The position numbers and the translations under genes were made by a program. From an uncultured Actinomycetes bacterium (GTDB lineage: Bacteria; Actinomycetota; Actinomycetes; S36-B12; CAIYMF01), in contig CAWJMG010000001.1 of the NCBI GenBank assembly GCA_963843975.1, positions 780,001-812,000 of the forward strand: a stretch of DNA of 32,000 nt. Direction: 5' to 3'. The notes beneath the pieces were generated by a model, which made no database searches, was not told the DNA's origin, and saw nothing but the letters and a program-made list of their open reading frames with translations. Below, piece after piece: positions 10,523 to 31,259 of this stretch (position 1 is its first letter; each line of letters opens with the position of its first letter).

Positions 10523-10584
10523 GACTCCCCCTCACCGGCTCGGCGAGCCGTCGCCCCAGCATGCCGTGGCACGGCCGGAGTTGT

Positions 10585-10620: not shown

Positions 10621-10634
10621 CTCAGGGGAAGCAA

Positions 10635-15924: not shown

Positions 15925-16082
15925 AGGGTCATCCTCGCCCACCCGGGCCCATCCGTGCCACGCGCCCCCGTCGGGCGGCGCGCCCGGACCGCGGCGCAGC
16001 GTGCCCGGATCGCCGACCGATGCAGCGAGGCCGCCGTCCCTCGCGGGGACGGCGGCCTCGTCGTGCTGACGGCGTTCGACGG

Positions 16083-16466: not shown

Positions 16467-16624
16467 CGCACTCACGTCCTGTCTGTCGTCAGGAGACCCC
16501 CCGGGCCTCGTTGGCGTCCGCTCAGGCTATCTGCCCGGCCACGCCCGCCCCAACCGAGAACCGCCCCTCGGTCGTCACCGGAACGTCGTCGGTCCCCGCA
16601 CGTACAGTCGCCCCGTGGCTCCAC

Positions 16625-17058
16625 GTCGTTCGCCGGACCAGCGCACCCGCGCGCTCGCTCTCCCCCTCGAGCTGCCGGGCGCCACGCTCACCCACCCGTT
16701 CGGCGACGACGTCAACGTCTACAAGGTCGGCCTCGCGACGGCGACCGACGCCGGTGCAGGCCGGCACGCCGGCGGCAAGCTGTTCGCGATGATCGGCCTC
16801 TGGGGCGACCCGGGCGTCATCACGCTCAAGGTCGAGCCCGAGGTGGGGCCCACGCTCATCGCCGAGCACGCGGCCATCGAGCCGGGCTACCACATGAACA
16901 AGCGGCACTGGATCTCCGTCACCCTCGACGGCACGGTGCCCGACGCCGTGCTCCGCGAGCTGGTCGAGGACTCCTACGACCTCGTCGTCTCGACCCTGAC
17001 CGCCCGCCAGCGCTTCGACGTAGACCCCGACCGCTTCCCCCTCCCCGGCCGCCGGTGA
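16625..17058 (+). CDS. MmcQ/YjbR-family protein
   Basis: C-terminal part of track ORF 16174..17058: ...LPGATLTHPFGDDVNVYKVG...KLFAMI...ITLKVEPE...YHMNKRHWISV. The start is uncertain; GTG 16625 was chosen. Confidence 0.65.
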
Positions 17059-17128
17059 CCGCCGGCGGCTCCACGGCTGCTGTGGAACCCGGCACGTCGT
17101 GGTCGGTGGGGGTCCGTAGGGTGCGGGC

Positions 17129-18553: not shown

Positions 18554-18730
18554 GCCAGGCGCGCTCCGGGCCACGAGCGAATGTCGTACGACGAGGCCTT
18601 CCACGTCTCGAAGGCGTATCGGGAGCGCCCGGAACGGCATCGCTCCCTCGTGCGTCGCTAGAGTGGCGGCGCCCGGGAGCCGCATCCAGCGCGTCGATCA
18701 GAGCCCGGGCGCGATGACCAGGGGGCACCA

Positions 18731-19828
18731 GTGGCCGGCGACAAGCGCGACGACGTCGATCTCGCACTCCGTGCCGCGATCGCCGCGGTTGCTCCCGGCA
18801 CCGTCCTGCGCGACGGGCTCGAGCGCATCCTGCGCGGCCGCACCGGCGGTCTCGTCGTCCTCGGCCACGACCGCATCATCGAGACGATGGCCTCGGGCGG
18901 CTTCTCCCTCGACATCGAGTTCTCCGCCCAGCGCCTGCGCGAGCTCGCGAAGATGGACGGCGCGGTCATCTGCGACCCCGACGCGACGCGTCTGCTGCGT
19001 GCCGCCGTCCAGCTGCTGCCGGACCCGAGCATCCCCACCGACGAGCAGGGCACCCGCCACCGCACCGCCGACCGCGTGTCCAAGCAGGCCGGCTTCCCCG
19101 TCGTCAGCGTCAGCAAGTCGATGAACACCATCGCGCTGTACGTCGCCGGCCGCCGGCACGTGCTCGAGGACTCCGGCCAGATCCTGTCGCGCGCCAACCA
19201 GGCGCTCGCGACCCTGGAGCGCTACAAGATGCGCCTTGACGAGGTCAGCGGCACGCTCTCGGCGCTCGAGATCGAGGACCTGGTGACGATCCGCGACGTC
19301 TGCGCCGTCGCCCAGCGCCTCGAGATGGTGCGCCGCATCTCGGCCGAGATCTCCGACTACCTCGTCGAGCTCGGCACCGACGGCCGCCTGCTGTCCCTGC
19401 AGCTCATCGAGCTCATCGCCGGCGTCGAGACCGACCGCCAGCTCGTGATCCGTGACTACCTCCCCGCCTCGGCGGGGAAGAAGGCTGCCCGCACTCTCGA
19501 GGCCGCGCTCGACGACCTCGACGCGCTCACCGCCACCGAGATGCTCGACCTCACGACGGTCGCGCGTGCGATCGGCTTCCCGACCGCCCCCGAGGTGCTC
19601 GACCAGGCCGTGAGCCCGCGCGGCTTCCGCCTGCTCGCCCGCGTGCCGCGCCTGCCCGAGGTCGTGCTCGACCGCCTCGTGGACCACTTCGGCGGGCTGC
19701 AGCGCCTGCTGGCCGCGAGCATCGACGACCTGCAGGCCGTCGAGGGCGTCGGCGAGACGCGTGCGCGGTCCATCCGCGAGGGCCTCAGCCGGCTCGCGGA
19801 GTCGAGCATCCTCGAGCGCTACGTCTGA
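18731..19828 (+). CDS. disA: DNA integrity scanning protein DisA (diadenylate cyclase)
   Basis: 365 aa with DAC-domain motifs DGAVI and GTRHRTA and a C-terminal HhH region. GTG start with AGGGGG upstream. Confidence 0.95.
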   Translation: MAGDKRDDVDLALRAAIAAVAPGTVLRDGLERILRGRTGGLVVLGHDRIIETMASGGFSLDIEFSAQRLRELAKMDGAVICDPDATRLLRAAVQLLPDPSIPTDEQGTRHRTADRVSKQAGFPVVSVSKSMNTIALYVAGRRHVLEDSGQILSRANQALATLERYKMRLDEVSGTLSALEIEDLVTIRDVCAVAQRLEMVRRISAEISDYLVELGTDGRLLSLQLIELIAGVETDRQLVIRDYLPASAGKKAARTLEAALDDLDALTATEMLDLTTVARAIGFPTAPEVLDQAVSPRGFRLLARVPRLPEVVLDRLVDHFGGLQRLLAASIDDLQAVEGVGETRARSIREGLSRLAESSILERYV

Positions 19829-19840
19829 CCCGACGCCGTA

Positions 19841-19858
19841 CGCCGCACCGTCGCGGCG
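19841..19858. terminator. Weak hairpin between convergent genes
   Basis: cgccgc-accgtc-gcggcg: 6-bp stem and 6-nt loop, between the disA stop and the stop at 19864. Confidence 0.25.
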
Positions 19859-19863
19859 AACGC

Positions 19864-20421
19864 TCAGGCGGTGACCGGGTGGTCGTCCGGGGCTGGCACC
19901 TGGCCCCAGGCGACGTCGCGGATGCCGAGCAGACTCTCCACCACGCCGCGGCGGTCAGCCGCCGCCAGCGACGACACGAGGGCCAGCAGCACGAGCCCTA
20001 CGCCGAGCGCGAGGCCGAGGCCGTCGTGCCGGATCGAGAGGCAGGCCAGGAGCACCAGGGCCAGGAGCGCCGGCCGCGCAGCGCGGCGCGGCCAGGCCGC
20101 CACCTCGCCCGAGCCGTCGAGCACGCGCAGCTCGGCCCAGGCCCACACGAGCCCGCTGCCGCCGCCCGCGGTGGCCATCACGGTGCCCATGAGCACGGAC
20201 AGTCCGAGGCAGACCCAGGACGCCCACGAGTCCCACTGGACTCCGAGCGGGTTGGACGGGTCCGGCCGCATCCCGACCGGTGCGATGACCAGCATCGACA
20301 CGACGAGCGTGCCGACGAACACGAGCGCGAAGACCGCGGCGGAGGCCGCCCACGCGAACGCGATGGCGCCGCGAGACGGGACGACGATGCCGACGACGGT
20401 GTGACCGGACGTGCCAGCCAT
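19864..20421 (-). CDS. Hypothetical polytopic membrane protein (about 4 TM; weak RDD-family resemblance)
   Basis: Preferred start ATG 20421 (MAGTSGHTVVGIVV...) with GGGGGAA upstream. Four hydrophobic segments. The C-terminus ...AADRRGVVESLLGIRDV recalls RDD proteins. Confidence 0.6.
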   Translation of the reverse strand: MAGTSGHTVVGIVVPSRGAIAFAWAASAAVFALVFVGTLVVSMLVIAPVGMRPDPSNPLGVQWDSWASWVCLGLSVLMGTVMATAGGGSGLVWAWAELRVLDGSGEVAAWPRRAARPALLALVLLACLSIRHDGLGLALGVGLVLLALVSSLAAADRRGVVESLLGIRDVAWGQVPAPDDHPVTA

Positions 20422-20500
20422 GATGGTTCCCCCTAGCCCGGGCCGCACGGCCCACATGCCGAGGATGCCCTCACGAGGGCTGTCCCGGAGGCCTTTCGGC

Positions 20501-21118
20501 TCAGGACTCGCGGCCGAGCACCGGCTCGCCGAGCCGCGGCTCGTCCCGGCGCAGGGCCTCGGCGCCGATGGAACGGGCATCGGGCAGCGCCACCACGACG
20601 ACCGGGTCTCCTCCGCCGACGGGCCGCACGACGCCACGTGTCCAGGACGGCAGCGTGTCAGGAACGTCCTCGGTCTCGGGCACCAGTTCGCCCGCGGCCG
20701 TCACGGTCACGACGCGATCGACCACGAGGCCGGCGTCGCGCCGGTACACCGGCAGCAGCACGTCGCCCGGACGCGTCCTGTCGGTGCGGAGGTCCACGAC
20801 GGGCACGGAGCGGCCGCGTACGTCGACCAGGGCCACCACGAGGCCGTAGCCCGCGCGCTCGTGGTCGGGCAGCAGCGTGAGCTGCGGCGCCCGCGTGATC
20901 TCGCGGACGTCGCCCACCGCCACGGCGAACGTGGTGCCGCCGACCGTGAACAGCACGTGCCCGCCGTCCTCGCTGACCGGCGTCACCGGCGCCTCGGGAG
21001 CCGCAGTCGCAGGAGCGGGAGCAGCGGGAGACGCGGTCTCGTCGGTCGCCGGTGCAGCGGGGGCCGGCCGTCGGGACGGCGACGGTGCGGGCGCGGCGGT
21101 GAACAGGGACACGGTCAT
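20501..21118 (-). CDS. cheW: CheW-like coupling protein with an Ala/Pro-rich N-terminal extension
   Basis: ATG 21118 overlaps the cheR stop (ATGA), with GAGGAGGG upstream. CheW-domain pattern: HVLFTVGGTTFAVAVGDVREI...LVDVRGRSVPVVDLR...AGLVVDRV. Confidence 0.8.
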   Translation of the reverse strand: MTVSLFTAAPAPSPSRRPAPAAPATDETASPAAPAPATAAPEAPVTPVSEDGGHVLFTVGGTTFAVAVGDVREITRAPQLTLLPDHERAGYGLVVALVDVRGRSVPVVDLRTDRTRPGDVLLPVYRRDAGLVVDRVVTVTAAGELVPETEDVPDTLPSWTRGVVRPVGGGDPVVVVALPDARSIGAEALRRDEPRLGEPVLGRES

Positions 21119-22515
21119 CCCTCCTCGGCGACCCGCCGGTCGCACTCGTCGGCGAGCCGGCGGCACAGGGTCACGAGCTGGGCGACGTCGCACCCGTCGA
21201 GCAGGTCGGCGAGGTCGGACTCCGGCGTCCCCGGGAGGGCGACGGCGGCAGCGCGGTACTCGCGCGCGGCGGCGGCGTGCTCGCCGCAGCGCGACAGCGC
21301 ACCGGCGAGGGCGAAGCGGGCGTGCCCGAGCTCGGGCGAGAGGTAGACGGCCTTGCGCAGCGCGACCAGCGATCCGGCGTCGTCACCCACGGTCGCGCGG
21401 GCACGGCCCTCGACCAGGTACGCGTCGACCTCGAACGGGCTGGCCGTGGCGGCCGACGCGGCCAGTCGCGCGGCCTCGCCGTACCTCGCCTGCTCCATCG
21501 CCTCGCGGGCGAGGCGCAGCAGGTCGGTGGCGAGATCGGGGTCGGGAACGTGGTCGGCGTCGTCGCGCGTGTGCGGGCGCGGGGGTGCGACGCGAGGCGG
21601 CGGCAACGGTCGGCGCGGGCGCGGCTCCGGCACCGGCTCGGGCTCCGGCACGCGGACGACGGGCACGTCCTTGCGGTAGGCGAATGCGTCGCCGAGGGTC
21701 ACGAGCGTGAACGAGTCGGTCACCTGCCAGAGCGTCTCGGCATGGCCGAGCACGAGGTAGCCGCCTGCACCGAGGACGCCGTGGAAGCGGCCCACGAGGT
21801 CGCGGGTGGTGTCGCGCGCGAAGTAGATGGTGACGTTGCGGCACACCACGAGGTCGACCTCGCCGTGCTCGAACGGAGGCGGGTCGGTGACGAGGTTGTG
21901 CAGCCGTACGTCGACGAGCCGGCGCGCCTCGGGGCTCACCTCGTACGTGCCGCCGACGCCGGGGGTGAAGAAGCGCGCGAGCCGCTCGGGCTCGGTGAGC
22001 GACAGCGACCGGCCGGAGTAGCGGCCGCGCAGCGTCAGGCTCACGGCCGACGACGACAGGTCGGTCGCGAGGATGCGGATCTCCGGTGATTCGGGCAGCG
22101 TCTCGGCCACCTCGAGAGCGAGCATCGCGAGGGAGTACGGCTCCTCGCCGCTCGAGCAGCCGGCGCTCCAGATCGTCAGGGCGCGGCCGCGTGCCACCGC
22201 CCGGCGCATGAGCTCGGGCAGCAGGCGGTGCCGCAGCGCGTGCATCTGCGGCGGGTTCCGGAAGAAGTGCGTCTCGGGGATGGTCACCTCGTCGAGCAGC
22301 CGCTGCCGCTCGTCGGCGCCCGACGGCGCGCTGATCCGAGCGAGGTAGGCGCCGAGGTCGGCAGCCCCCGTGGCGGCGATGCGGTCCGCGACGATCCCGG
22401 CCAGCGCGGGACGGCGGCTGCGGTCGAACACGAGACCGGCGGTGCGCGCGAGGAACTCCGCGAGGGCGAGGTGCTCGGAGTCGGTGAGCTCGCGGCTGAG
22501 GGCGACGGAGGTCAT
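21115..22515 (-). CDS. cheR: CheR-type protein-glutamate O-methyltransferase fused to a C-terminal TPR-like domain
   Basis: 466 aa: THFFRNP, IWSAGCSSGEEPYSLAM, ATDLS, VVCRNVTIYF. A Pro-rich linker (PEPEPVPEPRPRRPLPPP) is followed by about 150 aa of helical Ala/Leu/Arg repeats. Confidence 0.9.
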   Translation of the reverse strand: MTSVALSRELTDSEHLALAEFLARTAGLVFDRSRRPALAGIVADRIAATGAADLGAYLARISAPSGADERQRLLDEVTIPETHFFRNPPQMHALRHRLLPELMRRAVARGRALTIWSAGCSSGEEPYSLAMLALEVAETLPESPEIRILATDLSSSAVSLTLRGRYSGRSLSLTEPERLARFFTPGVGGTYEVSPEARRLVDVRLHNLVTDPPPFEHGEVDLVVCRNVTIYFARDTTRDLVGRFHGVLGAGGYLVLGHAETLWQVTDSFTLVTLGDAFAYRKDVPVVRVPEPEPVPEPRPRRPLPPPRVAPPRPHTRDDADHVPDPDLATDLLRLAREAMEQARYGEAARLAASAATASPFEVDAYLVEGRARATVGDDAGSLVALRKAVYLSPELGHARFALAGALSRCGEHAAAAREYRAAAVALPGTPESDLADLLDGCDVAQLVTLCRRLADECDRRVAEEG

Positions 22516-22516
22516 C

Positions 22517-23605
22517 TCACACCGCCTCGGGCACGGCGAGGCGGGCGACGGCGTCGATCACGGACGCAGCGATCTGGGGCAGCGGCAGCTCGACGGTGGC
22601 GGCCTCGAGCGCGATGGCGGCGGCCGGCATCCCCCAGACCGCGCTGCTGTCCTCGTCCTGCGCGATGGTGAAGGCACCGGCCCGGCGCATGGCGAGCAGT
22701 CCGGCCGCACCATCGCGGCCCATCCCCGTGAGCAGCACCCCGACGGCGCGCTCGCGGCAGACCTCGGCGACCGACCGGAAGGTGCGGTCGACCTCTGGTA
22801 CGTGGAGCTGGGCCGGGCGCGACGGCTCGACGCGCAGGCGGAGCGCGTTCTCGACGACGAGGTTGCCGTCGCTGGGGGCGACGACGACGTGCCCCGGACG
22901 CAGCCGGTCGCCCGACAGCGCGACGGACACAGGGAGGTCGACGACGCCGTCGAGCCAGCCGGCGAGGCCCTCGACGAAGCCCTCGGCCATGTGCTGCACG
23001 ACGACGATGGGCGCGGGAAGGTCCGGGGGCAGTGCGCCGAGGAGCGCGGCGAGCGCGGGCGGTCCGCCCGTGGACGCACCGATCACGACGACCGGCGTAC
23101 GACGGGACCCGGTGTGGTCGACGGGCCGCGGCGCCACGCCGTCCGCGGCGAGGCCGCGCTCGCGCAGCTTGCCGCGCGGGTGGGTGATGACGCGGACGCG
23201 GCTCGCGACGCTGAGGTGGCGGCCGAGCGCGCGGGAGAACGGGCCCGGCCCGAGCTGCTCGGAGGTCGGCGCGACGACGTCGACAGCGCCGGCCGCGAGC
23301 GCCACGTCGGCCTGCTGGGAGGCGGCGCCGGTGAGCACGATGGGGGTGGGGCAGCGGGCCATCACGCGCTCGACGACCTCGAGGCCGCCGACGCCCAGGG
23401 CGAGGTCGAGGAGCACCGTGTCCGGCGACAGCGTTCCGACCAGGACGACGGCGTCCTCGGCGGTCTTGGCCGCGCCGACGACCTCCACGCCCGTGAGCTG
23501 CAGGAGGTGGGTGAGGCGCGCGAGGCGCACGTGGGTGCCCGCCACGACGACGGTCGAGACCCGGCGCTCCAGGGCCCCGGGCGCGCCGGTGTCGGACGCG
23601 GTCAT
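22517..23605 (-). CDS. cheB: CheB-type protein-glutamate methylesterase with a degenerate receiver domain
   Basis: Catalytic motifs are intact: IGASTGGP (Ser), VVVQHM (His), LTGMGRDGA (Asp). ATG 23605 is preferred (GGGAGGGGG upstream); the track ORF extends to 23680. The stop is 1 nt before the cheR ATG. Confidence 0.9.
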   Translation of the reverse strand: MTASDTGAPGALERRVSTVVVAGTHVRLARLTHLLQLTGVEVVGAAKTAEDAVVLVGTLSPDTVLLDLALGVGGLEVVERVMARCPTPIVLTGAASQQADVALAAGAVDVVAPTSEQLGPGPFSRALGRHLSVASRVRVITHPRGKLRERGLAADGVAPRPVDHTGSRRTPVVVIGASTGGPPALAALLGALPPDLPAPIVVVQHMAEGFVEGLAGWLDGVVDLPVSVALSGDRLRPGHVVVAPSDGNLVVENALRLRVEPSRPAQLHVPEVDRTFRSVAEVCRERAVGVLLTGMGRDGAAGLLAMRRAGAFTIAQDEDSSAVWGMPAAAIALEAATVELPLPQIAASVIDAVARLAVPEAV

Positions 23606-23723
23606 CGACACGCGACCCCCTCCCGGCTCCGTGGTGGCAGCGCAGGCCCTCGGCCTGACGCCTTCTCTCCCGGGAGGCATCGTCAGGAAGCGGCGGGTCC
23701 TTGACCCGTTCGGGGGAACGAGA

Positions 23724-23978
23724 TCAGGCGGCGGAGCGGCGCACGTGGGCGCCCAGGGCCGCGCTGCACGAGCGGTAGGACAGCGCGGAGAAGCTCGATC
23801 CGGCCGACAGGATCGAGCACAGGCTGAGCACGGAGCCGATGGAGCCGACGGACAGCGCCGACCCGATCGACCCGATCGAGAGCACCGACCCGGTCGAGGC
23901 GATCGACAGCACGGATCCGGTGGAGGCGATCGACAGGAACGACCGCTCCGAGCGCCAGGACCTGCTGCTGTGCGCCAT
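23724..23978 (-). CDS. Candidate 84-aa serine-periodic (Sxx)n repeat protein
   Basis: MAHSSRSWRSERSFLSIASTGSVLSIASTGSVLSIGSIGSALSVGSIGSVLSLCSILSAGSSFSALSYRSCSAALGAHVRRSAA. 82 of 84 codons end in G/C. The ATG is 5 nt after the upstream stop and the ORF fills the gap to cheB. The first two 27-nt units differ only at 4 synonymous third positions. An antisense frame sharing the third position is also open, hence the moderate confidence. Confidence 0.45.
   Translation of the reverse strand: MAHSSRSWRSERSFLSIASTGSVLSIASTGSVLSIGSIGSALSVGSIGSVLSLCSILSAGSSFSALSYRSCSAALGAHVRRSAA
23763..23969 (-). repeat. 9-nt (TCN-NNN-NNN) periodicity containing degenerate 27-nt tandem units
   Basis: There are 23 consecutive triplet groups starting with a Ser codon. 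Four clear 27-nt units span 23826-23933, and CGATCG recurs at 9- and 27-nt spacing. Confidence 0.8.
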
Positions 23979-23983
23979 GGGCG

Positions 23984-24628
23984 TCAGGCCGCCGCGGTCA
24001 GCGCGAAGACCGACGCGTCGGAGGTGATCGCGCCGTTGCGCCCCACGAGCTTGTAGGTGCCCGCCTCGGCGATCGGCTGGTTGGCAGGGCAGCCCTTCTG
24101 GGACAGACGCCCGAGCCACGTGACGCCGACGGAGTAGCTCTCGCCCGGACCGAGCACGACGACGGACGACGACCCGCCCTCGTTGCAGTCGTCCGACGAC
24201 CAGACCTGCGTGGAGCCCGAGGAGATGATCAGCTCGTTGGCCTTGGCCCCGACGTCGCGCTTGCACGCGGACTTCGAGGTGTTCTGGATCCGCATCCGCA
24301 GCTTCGGGGTGGCACCGACCTGGTACGACGCGGCATCGGTCGACGCCGTCACCTGGATCTGGGAGTCCTTGCAGGCCCCCGTGCCGGACGACGTGCTCGC
24401 CGAGGGCTTGGCCGTGGGCGACGCGGAGGGCTTGTCGGTGGCGCTCTCTGTCGGTGCCGGAGTGGTGCTCTGGTCGGGCGTCGGGGTGGCGGTCGAGCTG
24501 CCCCCGCCGCTGAAAAACAGCGCGCGGATACCCAGCACGAGGGCGACCACGACGGCCAGGACGAGGAGTCGGCGTACCCAGTAGACGCCGGACCCCTTCG
24601 GACCCACCGGCTGCAGCAGCGTGCTCAC
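23984..24628 (-). CDS. Conserved membrane-anchored protein with an STP linker and a Cys-containing C-terminal domain (Rv3587c-like position)
   Basis: C-terminal part of track ORF 23984..25150, with a GTG 24628 start (VSTLLQPVGPKGSGVYWVRRLLVLAVVVALVLG...). It is divergent from mutY, as Rv3587c is in M. tuberculosis. Confidence 0.7.
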   Translation of the reverse strand: MSTLLQPVGPKGSGVYWVRRLLVLAVVVALVLGIRALFFSGGGSSTATPTPDQSTTPAPTESATDKPSASPTAKPSASTSSGTGACKDSQIQVTASTDAASYQVGATPKLRMRIQNTSKSACKRDVGAKANELIISSGSTQVWSSDDCNEGGSSSVVVLGPGESYSVGVTWLGRLSQKGCPANQPIAEAGTYKLVGRNGAITSDASVFALTAAA

Positions 24629-24688
24629 GGGGGCGACGCTACCGGGCCCGACCTCCCGCGCGCCGGACGGTGCGAGGATGCGCAGGTC

Positions 24689-25585
24689 ATGCCGTCCTCG
24701 CACCTGCACGCTCCGTTGCTGGCCTGGTACTCCGCGTCCGCACGCGACCTGCCGTGGCGCGCCCCCGACCGCACCCCGTGGGGCGTCCTCGTGAGCGAGG
24801 TGATGCTCCAGCAGACCCCGGTCGACCGCGTGCTGCCGGTGTGGCAGGCGTGGATGGCGCAGTGGCCGACGCCCGCCGCCCTCGCGGCCGAGACGCCGGG
24901 CGAGGTCGTGCGGGCGTGGGGCCGGCTCGGCTATCCGCGCCGTGCTCTGCGGCTGCACGAGGCCGCCAACGACATCGTGCTGCGGTTCGGCGGGCTCGTG
25001 CCCGACGACCCGGACCAGCTGCGCTCGCTCCCCGGGGTCGGCGACTACACCGCGGCGGCGCTGGCGTCGTTCGCCTTCGGGCGGCGGGCGGTCGTGCTCG
25101 ACACCAACGTGCGGCGGGTGCTCGCCCGGCTGCTCACGGGCGCCGAGCACCCGCGGCCGACCATCAACGCGGCCGAGCGGGCGCTCGCGGCGTCCGTGCT
25201 GCCCGACCTCGACGGCGAGGCCGCGCTCTGGTCGGTGGCGGTCATGGAGCTCGGCGCGCTCGTGTGCACGTCGTCGTCGCCGCGCTGCGACGCGTGCCCG
25301 GTGGCGGCATCGTGCACCTGGGTCGCGCTCGGCCGGCCGCCGTACGACGGGCCCGAGCGCACGGTGCAGAAGTTCGCCGGGACCGACCGGCAGGTGCGCG
25401 GCCGGATCATGGCGGTGCTGCGCGAGGCTCCGGGCGCGGTCGACAAGGTGCTGCTCGACGCCGTCTGGGACGACGCCGTGCAGCGCGAGCGTGCGCTCGA
25501 CGGCCTCGTGGCAGACGGGCTCGTCGAAGTGCTCGACGCCGGCCGCTACCGCCTGCCCGGCGTCGGTGGAACGATCGACGCATGA
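24689..25585 (+). CDS. mutY: A/G-specific adenine glycosylase MutY
   Basis: 298 aa: W..VSE.MLQQT, the HhH-GPD motif LPGVGDYTAAA and the Fe-S cluster cysteines C..SSPRCDACP....C. Confidence 0.9.
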   Translation: MPSSHLHAPLLAWYSASARDLPWRAPDRTPWGVLVSEVMLQQTPVDRVLPVWQAWMAQWPTPAALAAETPGEVVRAWGRLGYPRRALRLHEAANDIVLRFGGLVPDDPDQLRSLPGVGDYTAAALASFAFGRRAVVLDTNVRRVLARLLTGAEHPRPTINAAERALAASVLPDLDGEAALWSVAVMELGALVCTSSSPRCDACPVAASCTWVALGRPPYDGPERTVQKFAGTDRQVRGRIMAVLREAPGAVDKVLLDAVWDDAVQRERALDGLVADGLVEVLDAGRYRLPGVGGTIDA

Positions 25586-26056
25586 TCGAGAGCATCGGCG
25601 TCGAGACCCTGTCCGCCCAGAGCGTGGCCGTCGTGCGCGGGAAGGCGCAGGGCCACGAGATCGGCGACTTCGTGGGGGCGGCGTACGGCGAGGTCGTAGC
25701 CGTGCTGGGCGCCCAGGAGGCCGGCCCCACCGGCCCGCCGATCATCATCTACGCGCTCGGCGCCGAGGGCATGGACGAGTCCGGGCACGCGATGGTCTTC
25801 AGCCTTGCCGCCGGATTCCCTTGTGCCGCAACGTTCACCGCCAGCGGCCGGGTCGAGGCGGCGACACTGCCGGCCGGCGACGCCGTCGTGGCCGTCCACG
25901 TCGGCGCGTGGCCGGAGGCTCGGCGAGGCGTACGCCGCAGTCGAGGCGTACTTCGCCGAGCACGGGCTCTCGCGTGCCGGCGACCCATGGGAGACCTACC
26001 TCGACGGCCCTGACGCGGACCCGCACCGCACGATCCTCACCGCCCCCTGCCGCTGA
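25582..26056 (+). pseudogene. GyrI-like small-molecule-binding domain protein, reading frame broken by +1 at 25911-25922
   Basis: The ATG overlaps the mutY stop (ATGA). MIESIGVETLSAQSVAVVRG...AVHVGAWPE is in one frame. The family-typical C-terminus LGEAYAAVEAYFAEHGLSRAGDPWETYLDGP is in the +1 frame (track ORF 25805..26056). Confidence 0.7.
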
Positions 26057-26131
26057 GCGGGCGGCGGATGCTGGCACCACGTCCGGACGTCGAGGCGGGC
26101 TCCGCCCTGCCTCCGGGCGGGTTTCTCTGCC

Positions 26132-26154
26132 CTCCGCCCGGGGGGAGGGCGGAG
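26132..26154 (+). terminator. Candidate hairpin downstream of the GyrI-like gene
   Basis: ctccgccc-ggggggа-like loop-gggcggag: 8-bp GC stem and 7-nt loop, 76 nt after the stop. Confidence 0.3.
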
Positions 26155-26242
26155 ACCGCCGTACCGTGGCTGCAGAGGGCCGGTGCGTTGCGCTGACAGC
26201 ACCTAGGCTGCCGGAGAAGCCCGTGCACACCTGGGAGTCCCC

Positions 26243-27109
26243 GTGAGCGACGCACCCGCATCCGACCTTCCCGTCATCGTCACGGGGGCGTCATCCGGCA
26301 TCGGCCTCGAGACCGCAGTCGGCCTGGCACGCGCCGGCGTCCGCGTGGTCGCGACGGTCCGCGACACCGGCCGCACCGAGGCCCTGGACACCGCCGCCGC
26401 AGCTGCCGGCGCGAGCCTCGACGTGCGCCGCCTCGACGTCACCGACGCGGCGTCGGTGGACGAGCTCGTGTGCGGCGTCGTCGGCACGTACGGCGGAATC
26501 CGCGGCCTGGTCAACAACGCCGGAGCGGCCCACCTCGGCACGGTCGAGCTCGACACGATGGAGGCCATCCGCGACACGTTCGAGGTCAACTTCTTCGGCG
26601 TCGTGGCGATGACGCGCGAGGCGATGCCGCACCTGCGCGCGAGCGGAGGCGTCGTCGTCACGATCTCGAGCGTCGGCGGCATCGTCGGCCAGCCGTTCAA
26701 CGAGGCCTACTGCGGAGCGAAGTTCGCCGTCGAGGGGTTCATGGAGGGGCTCGCTCCCGTGGCCGCGACGGTGGGCGTGCGCGTCGTCGTGGTCGAGCCG
26801 GGGGCGGTCGCGAGCTCGTTCGTCGCGAACGCGGGCGTCGACCCCGCCGCGATGATCGAGGCTGCCGGCTCGTACGGCCCGGCCGCAGGCGCCTACCTGC
26901 AGCGCACGGCGGGCGCGTTCGCGAACGCTCAGAGCTCGGCCGATGCCGCTGCCGTCGTGGTGTCCGCCGTCCTCGATCCGGCCACGCCGTTCCGCGTCCA
27001 GACCTCGCCCACCGCCACCGGCTTCGTCGGCCTGAAGCTGGCCGACCTCGACGGCTCTGCGGTGCAGGGCTTCACCAGCTCCTGGGTCGCACCCGCCTCG
27101 ACCGGCTGA
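26243..27109 (+). CDS. SDR-family oxidoreductase
   Basis: 288 aa with a GTG start, TGASSGIG, NNAG and catalytic S...YCGAK. Confidence 0.9.
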   Translation: MSDAPASDLPVIVTGASSGIGLETAVGLARAGVRVVATVRDTGRTEALDTAAAAAGASLDVRRLDVTDAASVDELVCGVVGTYGGIRGLVNNAGAAHLGTVELDTMEAIRDTFEVNFFGVVAMTREAMPHLRASGGVVVTISSVGGIVGQPFNEAYCGAKFAVEGFMEGLAPVAATVGVRVVVVEPGAVASSFVANAGVDPAAMIEAAGSYGPAAGAYLQRTAGAFANAQSSADAAAVVVSAVLDPATPFRVQTSPTATGFVGLKLADLDGSAVQGFTSSWVAPASTG

Positions 27110-27125
27110 CGCCTCAGGCGCTCCC

Positions 27126-28391
27126 TCAGCCGGTGGCGCGCGCGGCCTCCGGCTCGACGCGTTCCCCGGTCGCCGCGCGGACCTCGGCGTACGACTCGCG
27201 CCAGAGGAGCAGCAGAGGGATCGCGGCCCACGAGACGCCGATCCAGCCGAGCCACGGCACGGCGGTGCCGAGCTCGTGCCGCGGCCACGCCGTCCAGGTG
27301 AGGAGGTATGCCGCCAGGACGGAGAGACGGGTCGTGCGGGTGCTCGGCGGCTGCAGCAGGTGCAGGACGGCGGGCAGCACCAGCACGAGGTCGTAGCTGA
27401 GGACGTGCGGCGTGACAAGGCCGGTCGTCAGCGCGACGAGCGCCCAGACCGCGCTGACCGCTGCTGACGGCCCACGGCGTGCGACGAGGAGCAACGCCAC
27501 GACGAGCACCGCACCGAGGGCGAGGCCGAGGGCCTGGGCGACCGATCCCCAGGCGGGCGGCACGAGGGACACCAGCGCCGACGGGATGCCGTGCATCATC
27601 CAGCTCTGCCCGACCTGCACGACCTCGTGGTAGCGGTCGGAGGTGAGGGCGTCGAGCCAGTCGACGACCCCCTGCGGCCCCGCCGCGGCCAACGACAGTC
27701 CGACGACACCGAGGGCCGCCGCCGCCCACGCGGCGAGCGCCGACCACCGGCGCTGCACGAGCAGCACCAGCGGGACGAGCACGAACAGCTGCGGCTTCAC
27801 CAGGCCGAGCGCGAGCACGGCGCCGGCCGCCGGGTCGCGGCCGGCGTCGAGCAGGCGAAGGCCCGCCACCCAGATGAACAGCAGCAGCGCGGAGTCCTGG
27901 CCTCCGCCGACGAGCTCGAGGACCGGCTGGCTCGCCACGACGCCGAGCACCGCGAGCCGCCACTGCGCGTCGGAGTAGCCCGGCAGCAGGGGTCGCAGCA
28001 GCAGCATCGAGGCAACCAGCAGCACGATCGTGATCGCGGTCCAGAGGACGCCGCTGGCGACGTACGGCAGCGCGGCGAACGGCAGGTAGAGCAGGGCGGC
28101 TGCCGGCGGCGAGACGAACCACGCGAGGTCGGGGCGGCCGCCGGTGACGGAGTCCTGCAGCGCCTGCTGCACCGCGGGGTCGTAGAGGTCGGACGCACGG
28201 CCCTCGAGCAGGAGCCTGCCCCCGGTCCAGTGCGCGAACCAGTCGGGCTGGAACACCGTGCCGATCGCGGTCTCGGGCAGGTGGCCAAGCGCGACGTTGA
28301 GAGCGGCCGCGACGAGGCAGAGCCCGACCACGATCCACGCGACCACCCGGACGCGCGCGGGCGTCAGCAGGCCGTCGACGTACGCCGCCAC
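27126..28391 (-). CDS. Polytopic membrane glycosyltransferase (GT87/DUF2029-like)
   Basis: C-terminal 421 aa of track ORF 27126..28961. GTG 28391 has GAGGAGG 5 nt upstream. There are more than 8 hydrophobic segments, in a pattern typical of mannosyltransferase-like DUF2029 proteins. Confidence 0.7.
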   Translation of the reverse strand: MAAYVDGLLTPARVRVVAWIVVGLCLVAAALNVALGHLPETAIGTVFQPDWFAHWTGGRLLLEGRASDLYDPAVQQALQDSVTGGRPDLAWFVSPPAAALLYLPFAALPYVASGVLWTAITIVLLVASMLLLRPLLPGYSDAQWRLAVLGVVASQPVLELVGGGQDSALLLFIWVAGLRLLDAGRDPAAGAVLALGLVKPQLFVLVPLVLLVQRRWSALAAWAAAALGVVGLSLAAAGPQGVVDWLDALTSDRYHEVVQVGQSWMMHGIPSALVSLVPPAWGSVAQALGLALGAVLVVALLLVARRGPSAAVSAVWALVALTTGLVTPHVLSYDLVLVLPAVLHLLQPPSTRTTRLSVLAAYLLTWTAWPRHELGTAVPWLGWIGVSWAAIPLLLLWRESYAEVRAATGERVEPEAARATG

Positions 28392-28614
28392 CGCCGCCTC
28401 CTCGCCGTACGCCGTCCCGACACGTTGCGGCCGTAGTCTCCCCGATGGCGGCGCTGCGCGTGGGCCGCGGCCCCTCACACGCCCGGGGCCGCCCTGTGGA
28501 CAACGGCCCTCGTGAATGCCGCGCTTGTTGCGCTCTGAGCGACGAAGTCCCCTACCGGGCGAGGGCTTCGCCCATCGTCGCCCGACGGGGGCCCACCCGT
28601 CATCGCACACGCCG

Positions 28615-28646
28615 GAGGGCGGCACACCTCTCGGTGTGCCGCCCTC
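28615..28646 (-). terminator. Intrinsic terminator of clpC1
   Basis: Perfect 14-bp stem gagggcggcacacc/ggtgtgccgccctc with a 4-nt loop, 20 nt downstream of the clpC1 stop. Confidence 0.65.
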
Positions 28647-28665
28647 GGGCGTTGTTCGGGACGGG

Positions 28666-31209
28666 CTAGGCGGAGACGTCTCCGGCCGGGGCGGCCGGGG
28701 GCTCCTCCGGGCCGGCGCCGACGGCCTCGACGATGTCGTCGATGGTCGGCACCTCGGTCTTGAGCTCGCCGCGGAAGTTGAACTGCCGCTCCGCGCCCTC
28801 GCCCTCGACGTCGACCACGACGATCGAGCCCGGACGCAGCTCGCCGAAGAGGATCTTCTCCGACAGCGCGTCCTCGATCTCGCGCTGGATCGTGCGGCGC
28901 AGCGGACGCGCACCGAGGACGGGGTCGTAGCCCCGCTCGGCGAGGAGGTCCTTGGCCGCACGGGTCAGCTCGATGCCCATGTCCTTGTCGCGCAGACGCT
29001 GGTCGAGCTTGGCCACCATGAGGTCGACGATCGTGACGATCTCGTCCTGCGTGAGCTGGTGGAACACGACGATGTCGTCGACGCGGTTGAGGAACTCAGG
29101 GCGGAAGTGCTGCTTGAGCTCGTCGTTGACCTTCTGCTTCATGCGCTCGTACGACGACTTGGTGTCGTCGGCGTTGGAGAAGCCGAGCCCCTGGCCCTTG
29201 GAGATGTCCCGCGTGCCCAGGTTGGTCGTCATGATGATGACGGTGTTCTTGAAGTCGACGACCCGGCCCTGGGAGTCGGTCAGGCGACCGTCCTCCAGGA
29301 TCTGCAGCAGCGAGTTGAAGATGTCCGGGTGCGCCTTCTCGACCTCGTCGAACAGCACGACCGAGAACGGCTTGCGGCGCACCTTCTCGGTGAGCTGGCC
29401 GCCCTCCTCGTAGCCGACGTACCCGGGCGGGGAGCCGAACAGCCGCGAGACCGTGTGCTTCTCGGAGAACTCGCTCATGTCGAGCGAGATCAGCGAGTCC
29501 TCGTCGCCGAACAGGAACTCCGCGAGGGTCTTGGACAGCTCGGTCTTACCGACGCCGGAGGGGCCGGCGAAGATGAACGAGCCGCCAGGACGCTTCGGGT
29601 CCTTGAGGCCGGCGCGGGTACGGCGGATCGCCTGGGACAGCGACTTGATCGCCTGCTCCTGACCGATGACGCGCTTGTGGAGCTCGTCCTCCATGCGGAG
29701 CAGGCGCTGGCTCTCCTCCTCGGTCAGCTTGAAGACCGGGATGCCGGTGGCGGTGGCCAGGACCTCGGCGATGAGCTCCTCGTCGACCTCGGCCACGACG
29801 TCCATGTCGCCGGCCTTCCACTCGCGCTCGCGCGTGGCCTTCTCGCCGAGCAGCTGCTTCTCCTTGTCGCGGAGCGAGGCTGCCTTCTCGAAGTCCTGCG
29901 CGTCGATCGCGCTCTCCTTCTCGCGGCGGACGTCGGCGATGCGCTCGTCGAACTCGCGCAGGTCCGGCGGCGCCGTCATGCGACGGATGCGCAGGCGCGA
30001 GCCCGCCTCGTCGATGAGGTCGATCGCCTTGTCCGGCAGGAAGCGGTCGGTGATGTAGCGGTCGGCCAGGGTGGCCGCCGCGACGAGGGCCGCGTCGGTG
30101 ATCGAGACGCGGTGGTGCGACTCGTAGCGGTCGCGCAGACCCTTGAGGATCTCGATGGTGTGCGCGAGCGTCGGCTCCTGCACCTGGATCGGCTGGAAGC
30201 GGCGCTCGAGGGCGGCGTCCTTCTCGACGTACTTGCGGTACTCGTCGAGGGTGGTCGCGCCGATGGTCTGCAGCTCGCCACGGGCCAGCATCGGCTTGAG
30301 GATCGAGGCCGCGTCGATCGCGCCCTCGGCCGCACCCGCACCGACGAGCGTGTGCATCTCGTCGATGAACAGGATGATGTCGCCGCGGGTGCGGATCTCC
30401 TTGAGCACCTTCTTGAGGCGCTCCTCGAAGTCACCGCGGTAGCGGCTGCCCGCGACGAGGGCACCGAGGTCGAGCGTGTAGAGCTGCTTGTCCTTGAGCG
30501 TCTCGGGCACCTCGCCCTTGACGATCATCTGGGACAGGCCCTCGACGACGGCGGTCTTGCCGACGCCGGGCTCGCCGATGAGCACCGGGTTGTTCTTGGT
30601 GCGGCGGGACAGCACCTGCATGACCCGCTCGATCTCCTTCTCGCGCCCGATGACCGGGTCGAGCTTGCCCTCGCGGGCCGCCTGCGTGAGGTTGCGGCCG
30701 AACTGGTCGAGGACGAGGGAGGTCGAGGGGGTGCCCTCGGCCGGGCCGGCCGACTGCTGCGGCTCCTTGCCCTGGTAGCCCGACAGCAGCTGGATGACCT
30801 GCTGGCGGACGCGGTTGAGGTCGGCGCCGAGCTTGACGAGGACCTGGGCGGCGACGCCCTCGCCCTCGCGGATCAGGCCGAGCAGGATGTGCTCGGTGCC
30901 GATGTAGTTGTGGCCGAGCTGCAGCGCCTCGCGCAGGGACAGCTCGAGCACCTTCTTGGCACGCGGGGTGAAGGGGATGTGGCCGGACGGGGCCTGCTGG
31001 CCCTGGCCGATGATCTCCTCGACCTGCTGGCGCACGGCCTCGAGCGAGATGCCGAGGGACTCGAGCGCCTTGGCCGCGACACCCTCGCCCTCGTGGATGA
31101 GGCCGAGCAGGATGTGCTCGGTGCCGATGTAGTTGTGGTTGAGCATCCGGGCCTCTTCCTGGGCCAGGACGACGACCCGGCGAGCCCGGTCGGTGAACCT
31201 CTCGAACAT
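28666..31209 (-). CDS. clpC1: ATP-dependent Clp protease ATP-binding subunit ClpC1
   Basis: Start ATG 31209 ([13 protein letters not shown]...) with GAGGAGAG upstream. Duplicated Clp N-domain repeats, two AAA+ modules ([16 protein letters not shown]) and a UVR-like middle region. Confidence 0.97.
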
Positions 31210-31259
31210 CTGCACTCTCCTCACACGAGCGGACGCGTTGCGACCGTTCTCGCAAGCCT

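Follow-up and report, generated by a model that had tools for sequence, protein, structure and literature searches.

Several described systems have a three-residue period with a fixed residue: collagen (Gly-X-Y), the polyglycine-II/PPII bundles of snow-flea antifreeze and the S4 helices of voltage sensors (RxxRxx, with 3(10) segments). Under a strict period of this kind, the fixed residue lines up along one face only at three residues per turn. The nonapeptide motif of the RTX beta-roll is GGxGxDxUx. Among small membrane proteins, ElaB, YqjD and YgaM of E. coli (DUF883) are C-tail-anchored, and GxxxG or glycine-zipper families such as PF04226 (Transgly_assoc; GlsB-YeaQ-YmgE) are thought to self-associate via their small-residue faces. 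To our knowledge, class III lanthipeptide precursors carry one or two S/S/C motifs after a leader and are always encoded beside a LanKC synthetase. The HXS anti-phage system has a His-Xaa-Ser repeat effector, HxsA, whose maturation is carried out by HxsD together with two adjacent rSAM proteins, HxsB and HxsC (PMC13128918).

The window analyzed here, 32,000 nucleotides of contig CAWJMG010000001.1 from an uncultured Actinomycetes bacterium, contains an ORF for a protein with serine at every third residue. The best overall explanation is a real minus-strand gene of a new family encoding a self-associating, membrane-associated protein, a reading that we place somewhat short of an even chance.

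The serine-periodic gene

The minus-strand ORF at 23724-23978 has 84 codons and its translation is MAHSSRSWRSERSFLSIASTGSVLSIASTGSVLSIGSIGSALSVGSIGSVLSLCSILSAGSSFSALSYRSCSAALGAHVRRSAA*. The gene, its parts and its neighbours are as follows.

23724..23978, minus strand: gene for a Ser-periodic small repeat protein (ATG at 23976-23978, TGA at 23724-23726)
23763..23969, minus strand: Ser-x-x array of 23 triplets, residues 4-72 (translation and triplet statistics)
23940..23960, minus strand: N-terminal Trp/Arg cap SWRSERS (alignments A1 and A3 and position profile)
23880..23933, minus strand: tandem SIASTGSVL, two copies, residues 16-33 (sequence and family profile)
23769..23789, minus strand: C-terminal cap SALSYRS (alignment and position profile)
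23979..23983, minus strand: 5-nt spacer between the upstream stop and the ATG (sequence)
23984..24628, minus strand: upstream co-directional gene, 214 aa (Pfam scan and gene call)
22517..23611, minus strand: cheB, response-regulator receiver plus CheB methylesterase (Pfam; a neighbour, not part of the feature)
21115-22515, minus strand: cheR-TPR (Pfam; neighbour downstream of cheB)
20501-20986, minus strand: cheW (Pfam; neighbour after cheR-TPR)

The first-pass annotation had reported serine at every third residue over 23 triplets, and translation of the ORF bears this out. Serine accounts for 27 of the 84 residues and occupies residues 4, 7, ... 70, giving 23 consecutive triplets, a run that by our arithmetic has a chance of about 1e-28 at ~6% Ser. 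Triplet position 2 of the array is mostly V/I/A/L/F and position 3 mostly G/L. The two caps are the window versions of family motifs, (R/K)WS(L/I)(W/R)SE(D/G)S for SWRSERS and S(R)WS(L/V)(L/M)S(W/Y/H)RS for SALSYRS, and the protein ends in ...SCSAALGAHVRRSAA, without the tail helix of tailed relatives. A codon check agreed with the reported duplication of SIASTGSVL, the two copies having only four differences, all synonymous and in third positions (TCC/TCG, GGA/GGG, TCC/TCG and CTG/CTC). Within the family repeat S-h-L-S-I-[GA]-S-x-G, conservation is highest over SIASTGSVL, where the profile columns are 85-100% conserved.

The ORF does start 5 nt past the upstream stop, as had been noted. This spacer has no Shine-Dalgarno-like sequence, so the window gene is probably translationally coupled to the gene upstream. 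The companion statement that the ORF exactly fills the gap to cheB holds only loosely: 43 nt lie between it and the first in-frame cheB ATG, and the gap is 112-118 nt to the cheB start preferred by codon statistics and an independent gene call.

Coding strand and selection on the peptide

It had also been cautioned that the antisense frame sharing codon position 3 is open, and this is true, from 23776 to 24027 with an ATG at 23839.

23839..24027, plus strand: open antisense frame MEPTDSADPIDPIESTDPVEAID..., not a gene (substitution pattern)

No Pfam or NCBIfam match was found for this plus-strand frame. GC3 is 0.96 in the minus frame and 0.92 in the plus frame and so cannot by itself choose the strand; the codon-usage log-likelihood was +22.8 for the minus ORF versus +10.3 for the plus ORF. 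An independent Logan assembly also calls the window ORF as a gene.

The orthologue of Longivirga aurantiaca (locus L003) is 89% identical to the window protein and has the same 84-codon ORF with start and stop kept. Between the two, the sense frame has 19 synonymous and 9 non-synonymous changes, F14I being the sole change in the core S6-S69, versus 7 synonymous and 22 non-synonymous changes in the antisense frame, where the start is lost (M39I) and the upstream stop becomes Tyr. Summed over 33 close family pairs, the sense frame has 623 synonymous and 404 non-synonymous changes and the antisense frame 411 and 617. Periodic Ser codons are mixed across the family (TCN 1719, AGY 166), and a homologue from Anaerolinea (54.5% GC) keeps SILSIASTGSVLSIGSIGS with AGT/AGC for 15 of 19 serines. 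The L003 counts, the 33 pairs and the AGY-coded homologue together uphold the proposal of selection on the peptide, and the per-strand substitution check favours the minus frame in every comparison, which settles the antisense caveat in favour of the minus-strand ORF first reported. Judged by these substitution patterns, 23724-23978 (-) is a real gene under purifying selection, and this part of the reading is solid. Note that in GC-rich genomes both strands of such regions stay open, and that, as here, the strand is decidable from switching between TCN and AGY Ser codons together with a low-GC homologue.

A large family of small actinobacterial proteins

We defined the Sxx/nonapeptide family by at least 15 consecutive Ser-x-x triplets, an S-h-L-S-I-[GA]-S-x-G unit and a Trp/Arg cap at either end. 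In the window protein these are 23 triplets, the units SFLSIASTG/SVLSIASTG/SVLSIGSIG and the caps SWRSERS and SALSYRS. A word-index search gave 326 matches to the family, at least 578 species genomes have a member (tblastn-confirmed), and the representatives of 50%-identity clusters number 1370 at E<=1e-3 and 735 at E<=1e-10, nearly all of 84-230 aa. Nearly all members are from Actinomycetota, the genera and classes including Streptomyces, Kitasatospora, Kribbella, Actinoplanes, Nocardia and Acidimicrobiia. The window protein is 49-63% identical to the 31 members of alignment A1.

Members begin with a short basic N-terminus and a Trp/Arg cap (RWSLWSE), followed by the repeats and a second cap (SRWSxLSxRS), and roughly half of them continue through a linker into a hydrophobic C-terminal helix and a cluster of Arg residues (RRRR). 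The repeats are ~7-8 copies of S-h-L-S-I-G-S-h-G (h is hydrophobic, mostly V/I/A), and repetition of this nonapeptide places Ser at every third residue over ~23 triplets. Arrays have a median of 23-24 triplets, with lengths concentrated at 23 and 26, which differ by one nonapeptide. In the family position profile Leu recurs every third triplet, and Trp and Arg are concentrated at both array ends. The arrays consist of 34% S, 13% G and 17% V+I, with Gly in ~36% of triplet position 3, few charged residues, and very little Pro (0.2%), Cys (0.9%) or His (0.4%).

The first-pass annotation did not recognize the family, and indeed no curated library searched (Pfam, NCBIfam or PADLOC) covers it. Scans of the window protein and relatives with these three gave no match apart from NCBIfam HxsA4 (NF038313; cutoff 55 bits), for which the window protein scored 14.5 bits and six relatives 17-23 bits. 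A PDB profile search returned only artificial (GS)n or Gly-Ser linkers and low-complexity segments, literature searches by motif and by Ser-X-X repeat led only to lanthipeptide and HxS repeat contexts, and any source that names a member labels it 'hypothetical'. The few long matches seem to be gene calls that were extended too far or fused and that carry unrelated domains. By motif content and alignment, the window protein is thus a tail-less member of a large, hitherto unannotated and mostly actinobacterial family of small proteins. That a family found in hundreds of actinobacterial species and kept by purifying selection should be missing from Pfam, NCBIfam and the searchable literature is one reason for interest in it.

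Fold and membrane association

Our best guess is that the protein self-associates on or in the cytoplasmic membrane, a tentative proposal that we consider more doubtful than probable, the mechanism being weak. The uncharged Ser/Gly/aliphatic repeat would form a regular rod, and at or in the cytoplasmic membrane copies of this rod would pack on one another by way of their small-residue (Ser/Gly) faces. The Trp/Arg caps would lie at the level of the lipid head groups, and the C-terminal helix of the tailed relatives (roughly half of the members) would be a membrane anchor. In this picture a small, self-assembling protein would serve a structural or organizing role at the membrane, and would be no enzyme, signalling component or peptide precursor.

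Several observations are consistent with a membrane location. A tail segment with a mean Kyte-Doolittle (KD) value of at least 1.6 is present in 89 of the 187 members having a tail of at least 17 aa. In the AlphaFold2 model of the tail-bearing protein P0077 (86 sequences; mean pLDDT 59.0) the tail helix, at ~90, is the only confident part. Pro and charged residues are nearly absent from the arrays, the 19-residue KD maxima of the arrays are ~1.6 (1.74 for the window protein; family median 1.58), Trp and Arg lie at the array ends, AlphaFold2 leans to helix in the second half of the array, and the window gene stands 5 nt after a membrane-protein gene. Other observations argue against it. On a Hessa-type scale the best 19-mer has the unfavourable value of +2.6 kcal/mol in the window protein and a median of +3.7 kcal/mol in the family. 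Confidence in the array is low (pLDDT 44-63; mean of 53.8 for the whole window protein, modelled with 87 sequences), and the window protein is without an anchor helix. A C-tail-anchor layout, with a single hydrophobic helix in the last ~30 residues and no signal peptide, is seen in about half of the family and not in the window protein. By textbook propensity V, I, G and S are residues of beta structure and turns more than of helix, and the RRRR that follows the last helix sits awkwardly with a two-pass hairpin topology. For the membrane hairpin that had been suggested earlier, the hydrophobicity is borderline and the AlphaFold2 models are uninformative. The earlier point that a strict three-residue period is ill-suited to an ordinary alpha-helix stands: from geometry, the 3- and 9-residue periods would spread Ser around an alpha-helix, which argues against an ordinary amphipathic or transmembrane helix.

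The strongest competitor, although in our estimate an unlikely one, is a beta-solenoid, beta-roll or cross-beta (amyloid-like) rod in which the nonapeptide is a half coil and the serines form ladders. The protein would then be a soluble, cell-surface or fibre-forming structural element and not a helical membrane protein. The periods of 3 and 9 recall 18-residue coils of two nonapeptides, array lengths of 23 and 26 triplets are one nonapeptide apart, and Leu at triplet position 3 recurs with a frequency of 0.18 at a lag of three triplets versus 0.02-0.04 at other lags. The S, G and V+I content suits beta structure and turns, the insertion energy is unfavourable for a membrane, and defined caps at both ends are typical of solenoids. 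However, AlphaFold2, which can usually recognize solenoids, predicts neither a solenoid nor a beta-roll and leans to helix. There is no signal peptide for a surface location, and with hydrophobic residues at two of every three positions not all could be buried in a two-faced roll. Profiles for RTX and hexapeptide repeats (Hexapep, PF00132, [LIV]-G-x4) gave no Pfam match at E<=0.01, and there was no PDB match.

It is also conceivable, at about the same low level of likelihood, that the array has an undescribed regular architecture with three residues per turn or step. This may be a 3(10) or PPII rod with a Ser ladder, or a beta-helix with its hydrophobic residues outside, possibly membrane-embedded or self-assembling into fibres. 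If so, it would be a new class of structural repeat, spread through Actinomycetota in more than 1,300 protein clusters. A Ser period kept over ~70 residues in a nine-residue unit matches no standard secondary-structure period, and it is here that AlphaFold2 fails; a solved structure could show a new way to build a protein rod or a membrane assembly.

Genomic setting

The 214-aa protein encoded upstream of the window gene comprises a hydrophobic segment at the N-terminus, a linker rich in Ser, Thr and Pro, and a Cys-containing domain that matches DUF4232 below threshold. Its counterparts in L003 and L090 are 65-69% identical to it, and the gene is present in all related che loci, with or without the Sxx gene. 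In the window lineage it is likely the operon partner of the Sxx gene. Across the family, clustering of the +/-6 kb neighbourhoods of 80 loci gave no conserved partner, the largest cluster (13 of 80) being a generic ABC ATPase, and a Pfam survey of the upstream genes was likewise heterogeneous with nothing conserved. No neighbour or fusion among the loci and long matches surveyed points toward any process. One subgroup, nine Streptomyces loci, has a PF04226 gene 67-95 nt downstream of the family gene.

Most family genes, like the window gene, come last behind an unrelated co-directional gene, which often overlaps by 4 nt or stands 5-60 nt off. Of 78 loci, 62 have a co-directional gene upstream (background 63%, p=0.002), which in 48 of the 62 is no more than 120 nt away. 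Of 77 loci, 50 have a convergent gene downstream (background 37%, p=1e-6), and the gap between the two stop codons is then often -4 to +7 nt; because the loci are phylogenetically non-independent, these p-values are inflated. Such positions, the wholly heterogeneous neighbours and clean presence or absence at one syntenic site would suit a small cassette of a mobile or selfish kind, such as one encoding a toxin-like peptide active on membranes, that inserts at operon 3' ends in tail-to-tail intergenic regions and persists there with no role for the host that involves its neighbours. The window gene is flanked by a perfect inverted repeat of 12 nt, but this repeat is not conserved in L003 and so is probably due to chance. 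Each 20-kb locus has a single array with no multiple copies seen, synteny is stable within genera and across Longivirga plus Nanopelagicales, and the peptide is under purifying selection. No antitoxin gene was seen and no Rfam RNA matched; tblastn against plasmid and phage collections gave no match, a test weakened by the low-complexity filter. We consider such a cassette improbable.

The suggestion of a Ser/Cys-rich modified-peptide precursor fares worse, since no modifying enzyme or other gene is conserved alongside and array Cys is scarce. More broadly, the protein could be a precursor or substrate for serial Ser modification, either a RiPP (lanthipeptide or rSAM type) or a target of O-glycosylation or phosphorylation. 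Serine at every third residue does resemble the His-Xaa-Ser repeats of HxsA, as the weak HxsA4 scores reflect; the class III lanthipeptide motif, S-x2-S-x2-5-C, has SxxS spacing as well; and a Ser/Thr kinase gene lies 1-3 kb off in nine loci, eight of them from closely related Streptomyces. The HxsA4 scores, however, are far under the cutoff and reflect Ser periodicity only, and the arrays are essentially His-free. Within 6 kb no rSAM, LanKC, YcaO, glycosyltransferase or other gene is conserved (the Pfam survey of upstream genes was also without LanKC), the rare Cys residues are not positionally conserved, and the proteins have neither leader/core organization nor a signal peptide. HxsA requires HxsB, HxsC and HxsD, a signal peptide and a peptidoglycan-binding domain (PMC13128918), and no HxsB/HxsC or HxsD neighbour is conserved among the 80 loci. 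Serial modification is in our view very unlikely.

Relation to the chemotaxis-like genes

A partner or substrate role in the Che-like module had likewise been put forward, and a dedicated partner, substrate or regulator of CheB-CheR-CheW would accord with the local synteny. The order 214-222-aa membrane protein, Sxx protein, cheB-cheR-cheW is kept in the window, Longivirga aurantiaca and a Nanopelagicales MAG, and across these three the Sxx protein is 72-89% identical, matching CheB at 68-87%. The wider survey does not support it. Among the scanned loci, che genes adjoin the Sxx gene only in the window, L001 and L003, with L090 one further, an adjacency confined to the Longivirga/Nanopelagicales lineage; no che gene lies within 10 kb in the 79 family loci scanned from other lineages. 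Conversely, four related che loci of other lineages (L088/89, L091/92, L093/94 and L095), syntenic for mutY, the membrane protein and cheB-cheR-cheW, have neither the Sxx gene nor a remnant of it. The window gene is also 5 nt from the upstream gene versus 112-118 nt from the likely cheB start, and its protein has no Che-type Pfam domain and no sequence resembling a Glu/Gln methylation site. From this distribution the Sxx family does not appear to be functionally tied to the neighbouring chemotaxis-like genes, and we give a dedicated Che role scarcely any weight. For the orphan cheB-cheR-cheW module of this locus, adjacency alone is insufficient ground for assigning a new partner.

Finally, the view that there is no minus-strand gene, the periodicity being a DNA or RNA repeat or the shadow of an acidic plus-strand ORF, is already refuted by the comparative data and its probability negligible: although the plus frame is open with high GC3 and another Ser-periodic frame of the window, 14870-14953 (+), truly is the antisense shadow of an acidic tail, the substitutions favour the minus frame throughout, the plus ORF loses its start codon in L003, the AGY-coded homologue has wholly different DNA, and RNA folding is no better than that of shuffled sequence (z = -1.63), with no Rfam match.

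Comparison with known systems

HxsA is the only protein with a curated model giving any match, and it is likewise a small protein with a three-residue repeat and Ser at a fixed position. HxsA, however, carries a signal peptide and a peptidoglycan-binding domain besides its five basic repeats, which contain His, whereas the Sxx proteins have ~23 hydrophobic triplets without His and lack both a signal peptide and rSAM neighbours. The class III lanthipeptide precursors (SapB/RamS and AmfS) are also actinobacterial and small, with SxxS spacing and hydrophobic residues between the serines; the Sxx family differs in its 23 serial triplets, rare Cys and lack of a leader or nearby synthetase. The RTX repeat is likewise a nonapeptide in which small residues recur at intervals of three and position 8 is hydrophobic, and by analogy ~7-8 Sxx units would give about four 18-residue coils. 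In contrast to RTX, the Sxx repeat is hydrophobic at positions 2 and 5 and has no Asp and no GG, and hence would have no Ca2+ site.

Likeness to collagen, polyglycine-II and S4 is one of analogy only, the fixed residue being Gly or Arg in those proteins and Ser in the Sxx arrays, where Gly fills only about a third of triplet position 3 and Pro is almost absent. The C-tail-anchored proteins ElaB, YqjD and YgaM have no sequence relationship to the family by Pfam, and the Sxx N-terminal domain is a Ser repeat and the window protein tail-less, but about half of the Sxx family similarly ends in a hydrophobic helix plus a few Arg residues, with no N-terminal signal peptide. The PF04226-type zippers have a period of 4, versus 3 and 9 in the Sxx proteins, and no sequence match to them, but both are small, hydrophobic and studded with Gly and Ser.

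The serine-triplet gene and its coding strand

Translation of the minus strand confirmed that Ser occupies every third residue for 23 consecutive triplets (residues 4, 7, ... 70) of a protein that contains 27 Ser in all.

23724-23978, minus strand, serine-triplet (Sxx) gene, 84-residue translation MAHSSRSWRSERSFLSIASTGSVLSIASTGSVLSIGSIGSALSVGSIGSVLSLCSILSAGSSFSALSYRSCSAALGAHVRRSAA

The Ser codons are TCG (13), TCC (nine) and AGC (five). The two copies of SIASTGSVL reported in the first-pass annotation indeed differ at four synonymous third positions, and the ATG lies 5 nt past the stop codon of the upstream gene. The description of the ORF as exactly filling the gap to cheB is only approximate, because 43 nt separate it from the first in-frame ATG of cheB and 112-118 nt from the cheB start that both an independent gene call and the codon model prefer. 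A perfect 12-nt inverted repeat (CGGCCTGACGCC / GGCGTCAGGCCG, at 23651-23662 and 23980-23991) flanks the gene plus its downstream spacer. By our estimate about 0.04 such pairs per 400 nt are expected by chance at this GC content, and conservation of the upstream arm does not extend to Longivirga aurantiaca.

The antisense frame sharing codon position 3 is also open, as had been cautioned, and since its GC3 is 0.92 versus 0.96 for the minus frame, composition alone does not decide the strand. The original choice of the minus strand was upheld by substitution patterns, Ser codon classes, a divergent homologue and codon usage. The window is syntenic with the L. aurantiaca locus (81-92% nucleotide identity), where the orthologous ORF likewise runs to 84 codons with start and stop conserved. 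The minus frames differ by 19 synonymous and nine non-synonymous codon changes and, with the sole exception of F14I, the latter are confined to the five N-terminal and fourteen C-terminal residues. The antisense frame has seven synonymous against 22 non-synonymous changes and loses its ATG to Ile. Summed over 33 close family-gene pairs from other genera, synonymous and non-synonymous changes numbered 623 and 404 in the sense frame versus 411 and 617 in the antisense frame. Both Ser codon classes are in use at the periodic positions of 80 loci (TCN, 1719; AGY, 166), with A, G, C and T as rare substitutes. The clearest single case is the homologue from an Anaerolinea MAG of 54.5% GC, which retains the peptide ...SILSIASTGSILSIASTGSVLSIGSIGSVLSIGSVGS... 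yet uses AGT/AGC for 15 of 19 Ser; the DNA is quite different and the peptide the same. Trained on eight confident window genes, a codon-usage model scored the minus ORF at +22.8 versus +10.3 for the plus ORF. Folding of the RNA showed no advantage over shuffled sequence (z = -1.63), and no Rfam family matched. On these sequence comparisons we regard it as firmly established that the window gene is genuine, that the minus strand encodes it and that its peptide is under selection. The last point, also part of the first-pass annotation, is borne out by the synonymous excess in the sense frame and by the AGY-spelled homologue.

A second frame with Ser at every third codon (10 triplets; 14870-14953, plus strand) lies within the DUF3027 gene (14788-15924, minus strand). 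It is the antisense shadow of that protein's acidic C-terminal tail, ...EDSDGGEDADDSDDADDEQADE..., and as a mirror of the window-gene case it is a useful negative control.

Extent and architecture of the family

A word-index search returned 326 relatives, a scan of one genome per species gave at least 578 confirmed family loci, and an exhaustive profile search gave 1370 50%-identity cluster representatives at E≤1e-3 (735 at E≤1e-10). The hosts include Streptomyces, Kitasatospora, Embleya, Kribbella, Actinoplanes, Nocardia, Cellulomonas, Janibacter, Microlunatus, Acidimicrobiia, Solirubrobacterales and Nanopelagicales, plus the one Anaerolinea MAG. Where sources give a name it is always 'hypothetical protein', and the word-index relatives carried no precomputed Pfam domains. 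Lengths run from 84 to 230 aa in nearly all members, and the small number above that seem to be gene calls extended too far or fused, with unrelated domains. The family is widespread, conserved and unannotated, with a highly unusual triplet/nonapeptide Ser repeat, and we place it outside every family tested. Family alignments and a position profile gave the following architecture.

Parts of the family proteins, from the N-terminus
Part 1: N-terminus, variable and basic
Part 2: first cap, (R/K)WS(L/I)(W/R)SE(D/G)S
Part 3: near-invariant block, S-x-L-S-I-[GA]-S-x-G-S-V-L-S-I-G-S-V-G-S-x-L-S-[IV]-G-S-[VI]-G
Part 4: second array half, more variable, Ser retained at 72-96% of periodic positions
Part 5: second cap, S(R)WS(L/V)(L/M)S(W/Y/H)RS

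The second residue of a triplet is V/I/A/L/F and the third G or L. Leu as third residue returns at every third triplet (joint frequency 0.18 versus 0.02-0.04 at other lags) and therefore the true repeat unit is the nonapeptide S-h-L-S-I-G-S-h-G, where h is a hydrophobic residue. The commonest array length is 23 triplets, and a second maximum lies at 26. The arrays consist of S (34%), G (13%), L (12%) and V, I and A (8% each), with 0.2% P and very low charge. About half of the members having a tail of at least 17 aa (89/187) contain a tail segment with a Kyte-Doolittle value of at least 1.6, and in the sequences inspected an Arg cluster follows the hydrophobic stretch. The window protein, its Longivirga orthologue and the family proteins P0150 and P0139 are among the tail-less members.

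Genomic position across the family

Gene positions were taken from a codon-usage gene caller at 78 loci (L003-L082 and the window). The upstream gene was co-directional in 62 of 78 loci (63% of adjacent pairs as background, p=0.002) and the downstream gene convergent in 50 of 77 (37% background, p=1e-6), both p values being optimistic because the loci are phylogenetically non-independent. In 48 of the 62 the upstream gene was within 120 nt, frequently with a 4-nt overlap, and the stop-to-stop distance to the convergent gene was often -4 to +7 nt. With these two biases, the family gene tends to come last among the cistrons of whatever unit hosts it. The upstream genes are mutually unrelated (among them DEAD/DUF3516 helicase, CPBP protease, lipoprotein, sulfotransferase, methyltransferases, DapD, sigma factor, MMPL, DedA/VTT, aminotransferases, APH, SDR and AdhE). 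The window gene, with its 5-nt upstream gap, fits the pattern. The pattern could stem from the gene inserting where tail-to-tail gaps are 'safe', from reliance on read-through transcription or from another cause.

Nine Streptomyces loci form one subgroup (L020, L022, L031, L032, L036, L040, L074, L076 and L078, ~10360-10730). In these a gene encoding an 88-90-aa PF04226 (Transgly_assoc / GlsB-YeaQ-YmgE type) membrane protein lies 67-95 nt downstream, and a 290-314-aa protein without a Pfam match (123 aa on the short L036 contig) is encoded upstream at -4 to +13 nt. Eight of the nine also have a Ser/Thr kinase gene 1-3 kb downstream; the ninth is L036, whose 2-kb contig does not reach that far.

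An Rce1-like/CPBP intramembrane protease gene (474-475 aa) is directly upstream in L002 (6616-8040), L005 (8578-10005) and L007, which are metagenome-derived actinobacterial loci, two of them labelled Actinomycetes MAGs. It runs into the called family-gene start in L002 and is separated from the family gene by 10 nt in L005 and L007. This neighbor might hint at processing of the family protein, but is not general.

Fold and membrane association

With family alignments as input, AlphaFold2 reached a mean pLDDT of 53.8 on the window protein and of 59.0 on the tail-bearing member P0077. The arrays were modeled as coil in the first half and low-confidence helix in the second, and the P0077 tail as helix (pLDDT ~90). 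A PDB profile search matched only artificial Gly-Ser linkers.

We tentatively favor, as the most likely reading, a protein that would self-associate at or in the cytoplasmic membrane. Counted for membrane association were the uncharged, proline-free arrays, the Trp/Arg caps at both array ends, the helix resembling a tail anchor that about half of the members have and, in the window, the membrane-protein gene just upstream. Hydropathy is borderline (Kyte-Doolittle 19-residue maximum 1.74 for the window protein, family median 1.58), and a Hessa-type scale (+2.6 and +3.7 kcal/mol, respectively) disfavors spontaneous insertion. This poor insertion energy, the nonapeptide unit and an array composition prone to beta structure and turns speak for the main rival, a beta-solenoid or amyloid-like fiber, which we consider unlikely.

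Geometry further constrains the possible folds. In an alpha-helix a period of three would rotate Ser by -60 degrees per triplet, so that Ser would surround the helix and leave no amphipathic face. The 18-residue double unit would make exactly five turns, placing Leu/Ile on two opposite ridges with Gly/Ser flanks, an arrangement suited to lateral helix-helix packing. A conformation with three residues per turn would have one face all Ser, one all aliphatic and one Gly/Leu.

The neighboring che genes

Between the mutY-like gene and disA the minus strand carries a block that includes the window gene and encodes, in order, a 214-aa membrane protein, the Sxx protein, CheB, CheR-TPR and CheW.

20501-23611, minus strand, orphan trio cheB, cheR (C-terminal TPR-like extension) and cheW, in the clpC-to-radA region (context 16000-31224)
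19864-20421, minus strand, hydrophobic 185-aa protein, directly downstream of cheW

The housekeeping run of the window comprises clpC, GT87, SDR, mutY-like glycosylase, disA, radA and DUF3027 genes; the clpC-mutY-disA-radA order is also found in other actinobacteria. No cheA or MCP gene was found among the window genes scanned. The 185-aa protein has no Pfam match and 71% identity in L. aurantiaca, and might be part of the che-like unit.

When every ORF within ±6 kb of the family gene in 80 genome loci was clustered all-against-all, no conserved neighbor emerged, the largest cluster being a generic ABC ATPase (13 loci). CheB, CheR and CheW gave tblastn matches on family loci only in the window's own contig (L001) and L. 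aurantiaca (L003). Reciprocally, contigs of CheB homologues were inspected for the Sxx gene. The arrangement of mutY, a 209-226-aa membrane protein and cheB-cheR-cheW recurs in at least seven actinobacterial lineages, and the che loci that carry an Sxx gene are those of the window, L003 and a Nanopelagicales MAG (L090; 92 aa, 72% identity, 20 nt past the upstream gene). Matching loci that lack the Sxx region, named in the first-pass annotation as evidence against its own proposal, were looked for and found: L088/89, L093/94 and L095 have a 148-242-nt gap with no remnant, and L091/92 has a divergent sigma-factor gene pair in that position. Since the family occurs without che genes and the che module without the Sxx gene, the proposal of a Che-module partner or substrate is unsupported. 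The most plausible reading of the adjacency to cheB is synteny inherited together with the upstream membrane-protein gene.

Two of the Sxx-less gaps between the membrane-protein gene and cheB share a conserved stretch (as translated, ...VNGGS*RSRNHR... at L088 ~3905-3945 and ...VSGGS*RSRSHR... at L093 ~2905-2945), which could be a cheB promoter or leader element.

Comparison with known systems

Of the curated models only NCBIfam HxsA4 (His-Xaa-Ser repeats) responded, and its 14.5-23 bits fall short of the cutoff of 55. HxsA is a secreted, basic, peptidoglycan-binding effector that carries five HxS repeats and depends for its maturation on HxsD and the adjacent rSAM enzymes HxsB and HxsC (PMC13128918). 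Identity with HxsA was rejected, as the score is below the cutoff and the family has none of these features. Class III lanthipeptides, whose SxxS spacing the family shares, require Cys, a leader peptide and also a LanKC synthetase, all of which are lacking here. The suggestion of a modified-peptide precursor is unsupported. RTX nonapeptides, hexapeptide beta-helices, collagen and PPII bundles have only repeat arithmetic in common with the family, and none of these repeat types gave a profile match to the family protein. The nearest functional analogies, without homology, are tail-anchored small membrane proteins and glycine-zipper proteins, and it is a protein of glycine-zipper type, PF04226, whose gene adjoins the family gene in the nine Streptomyces loci.
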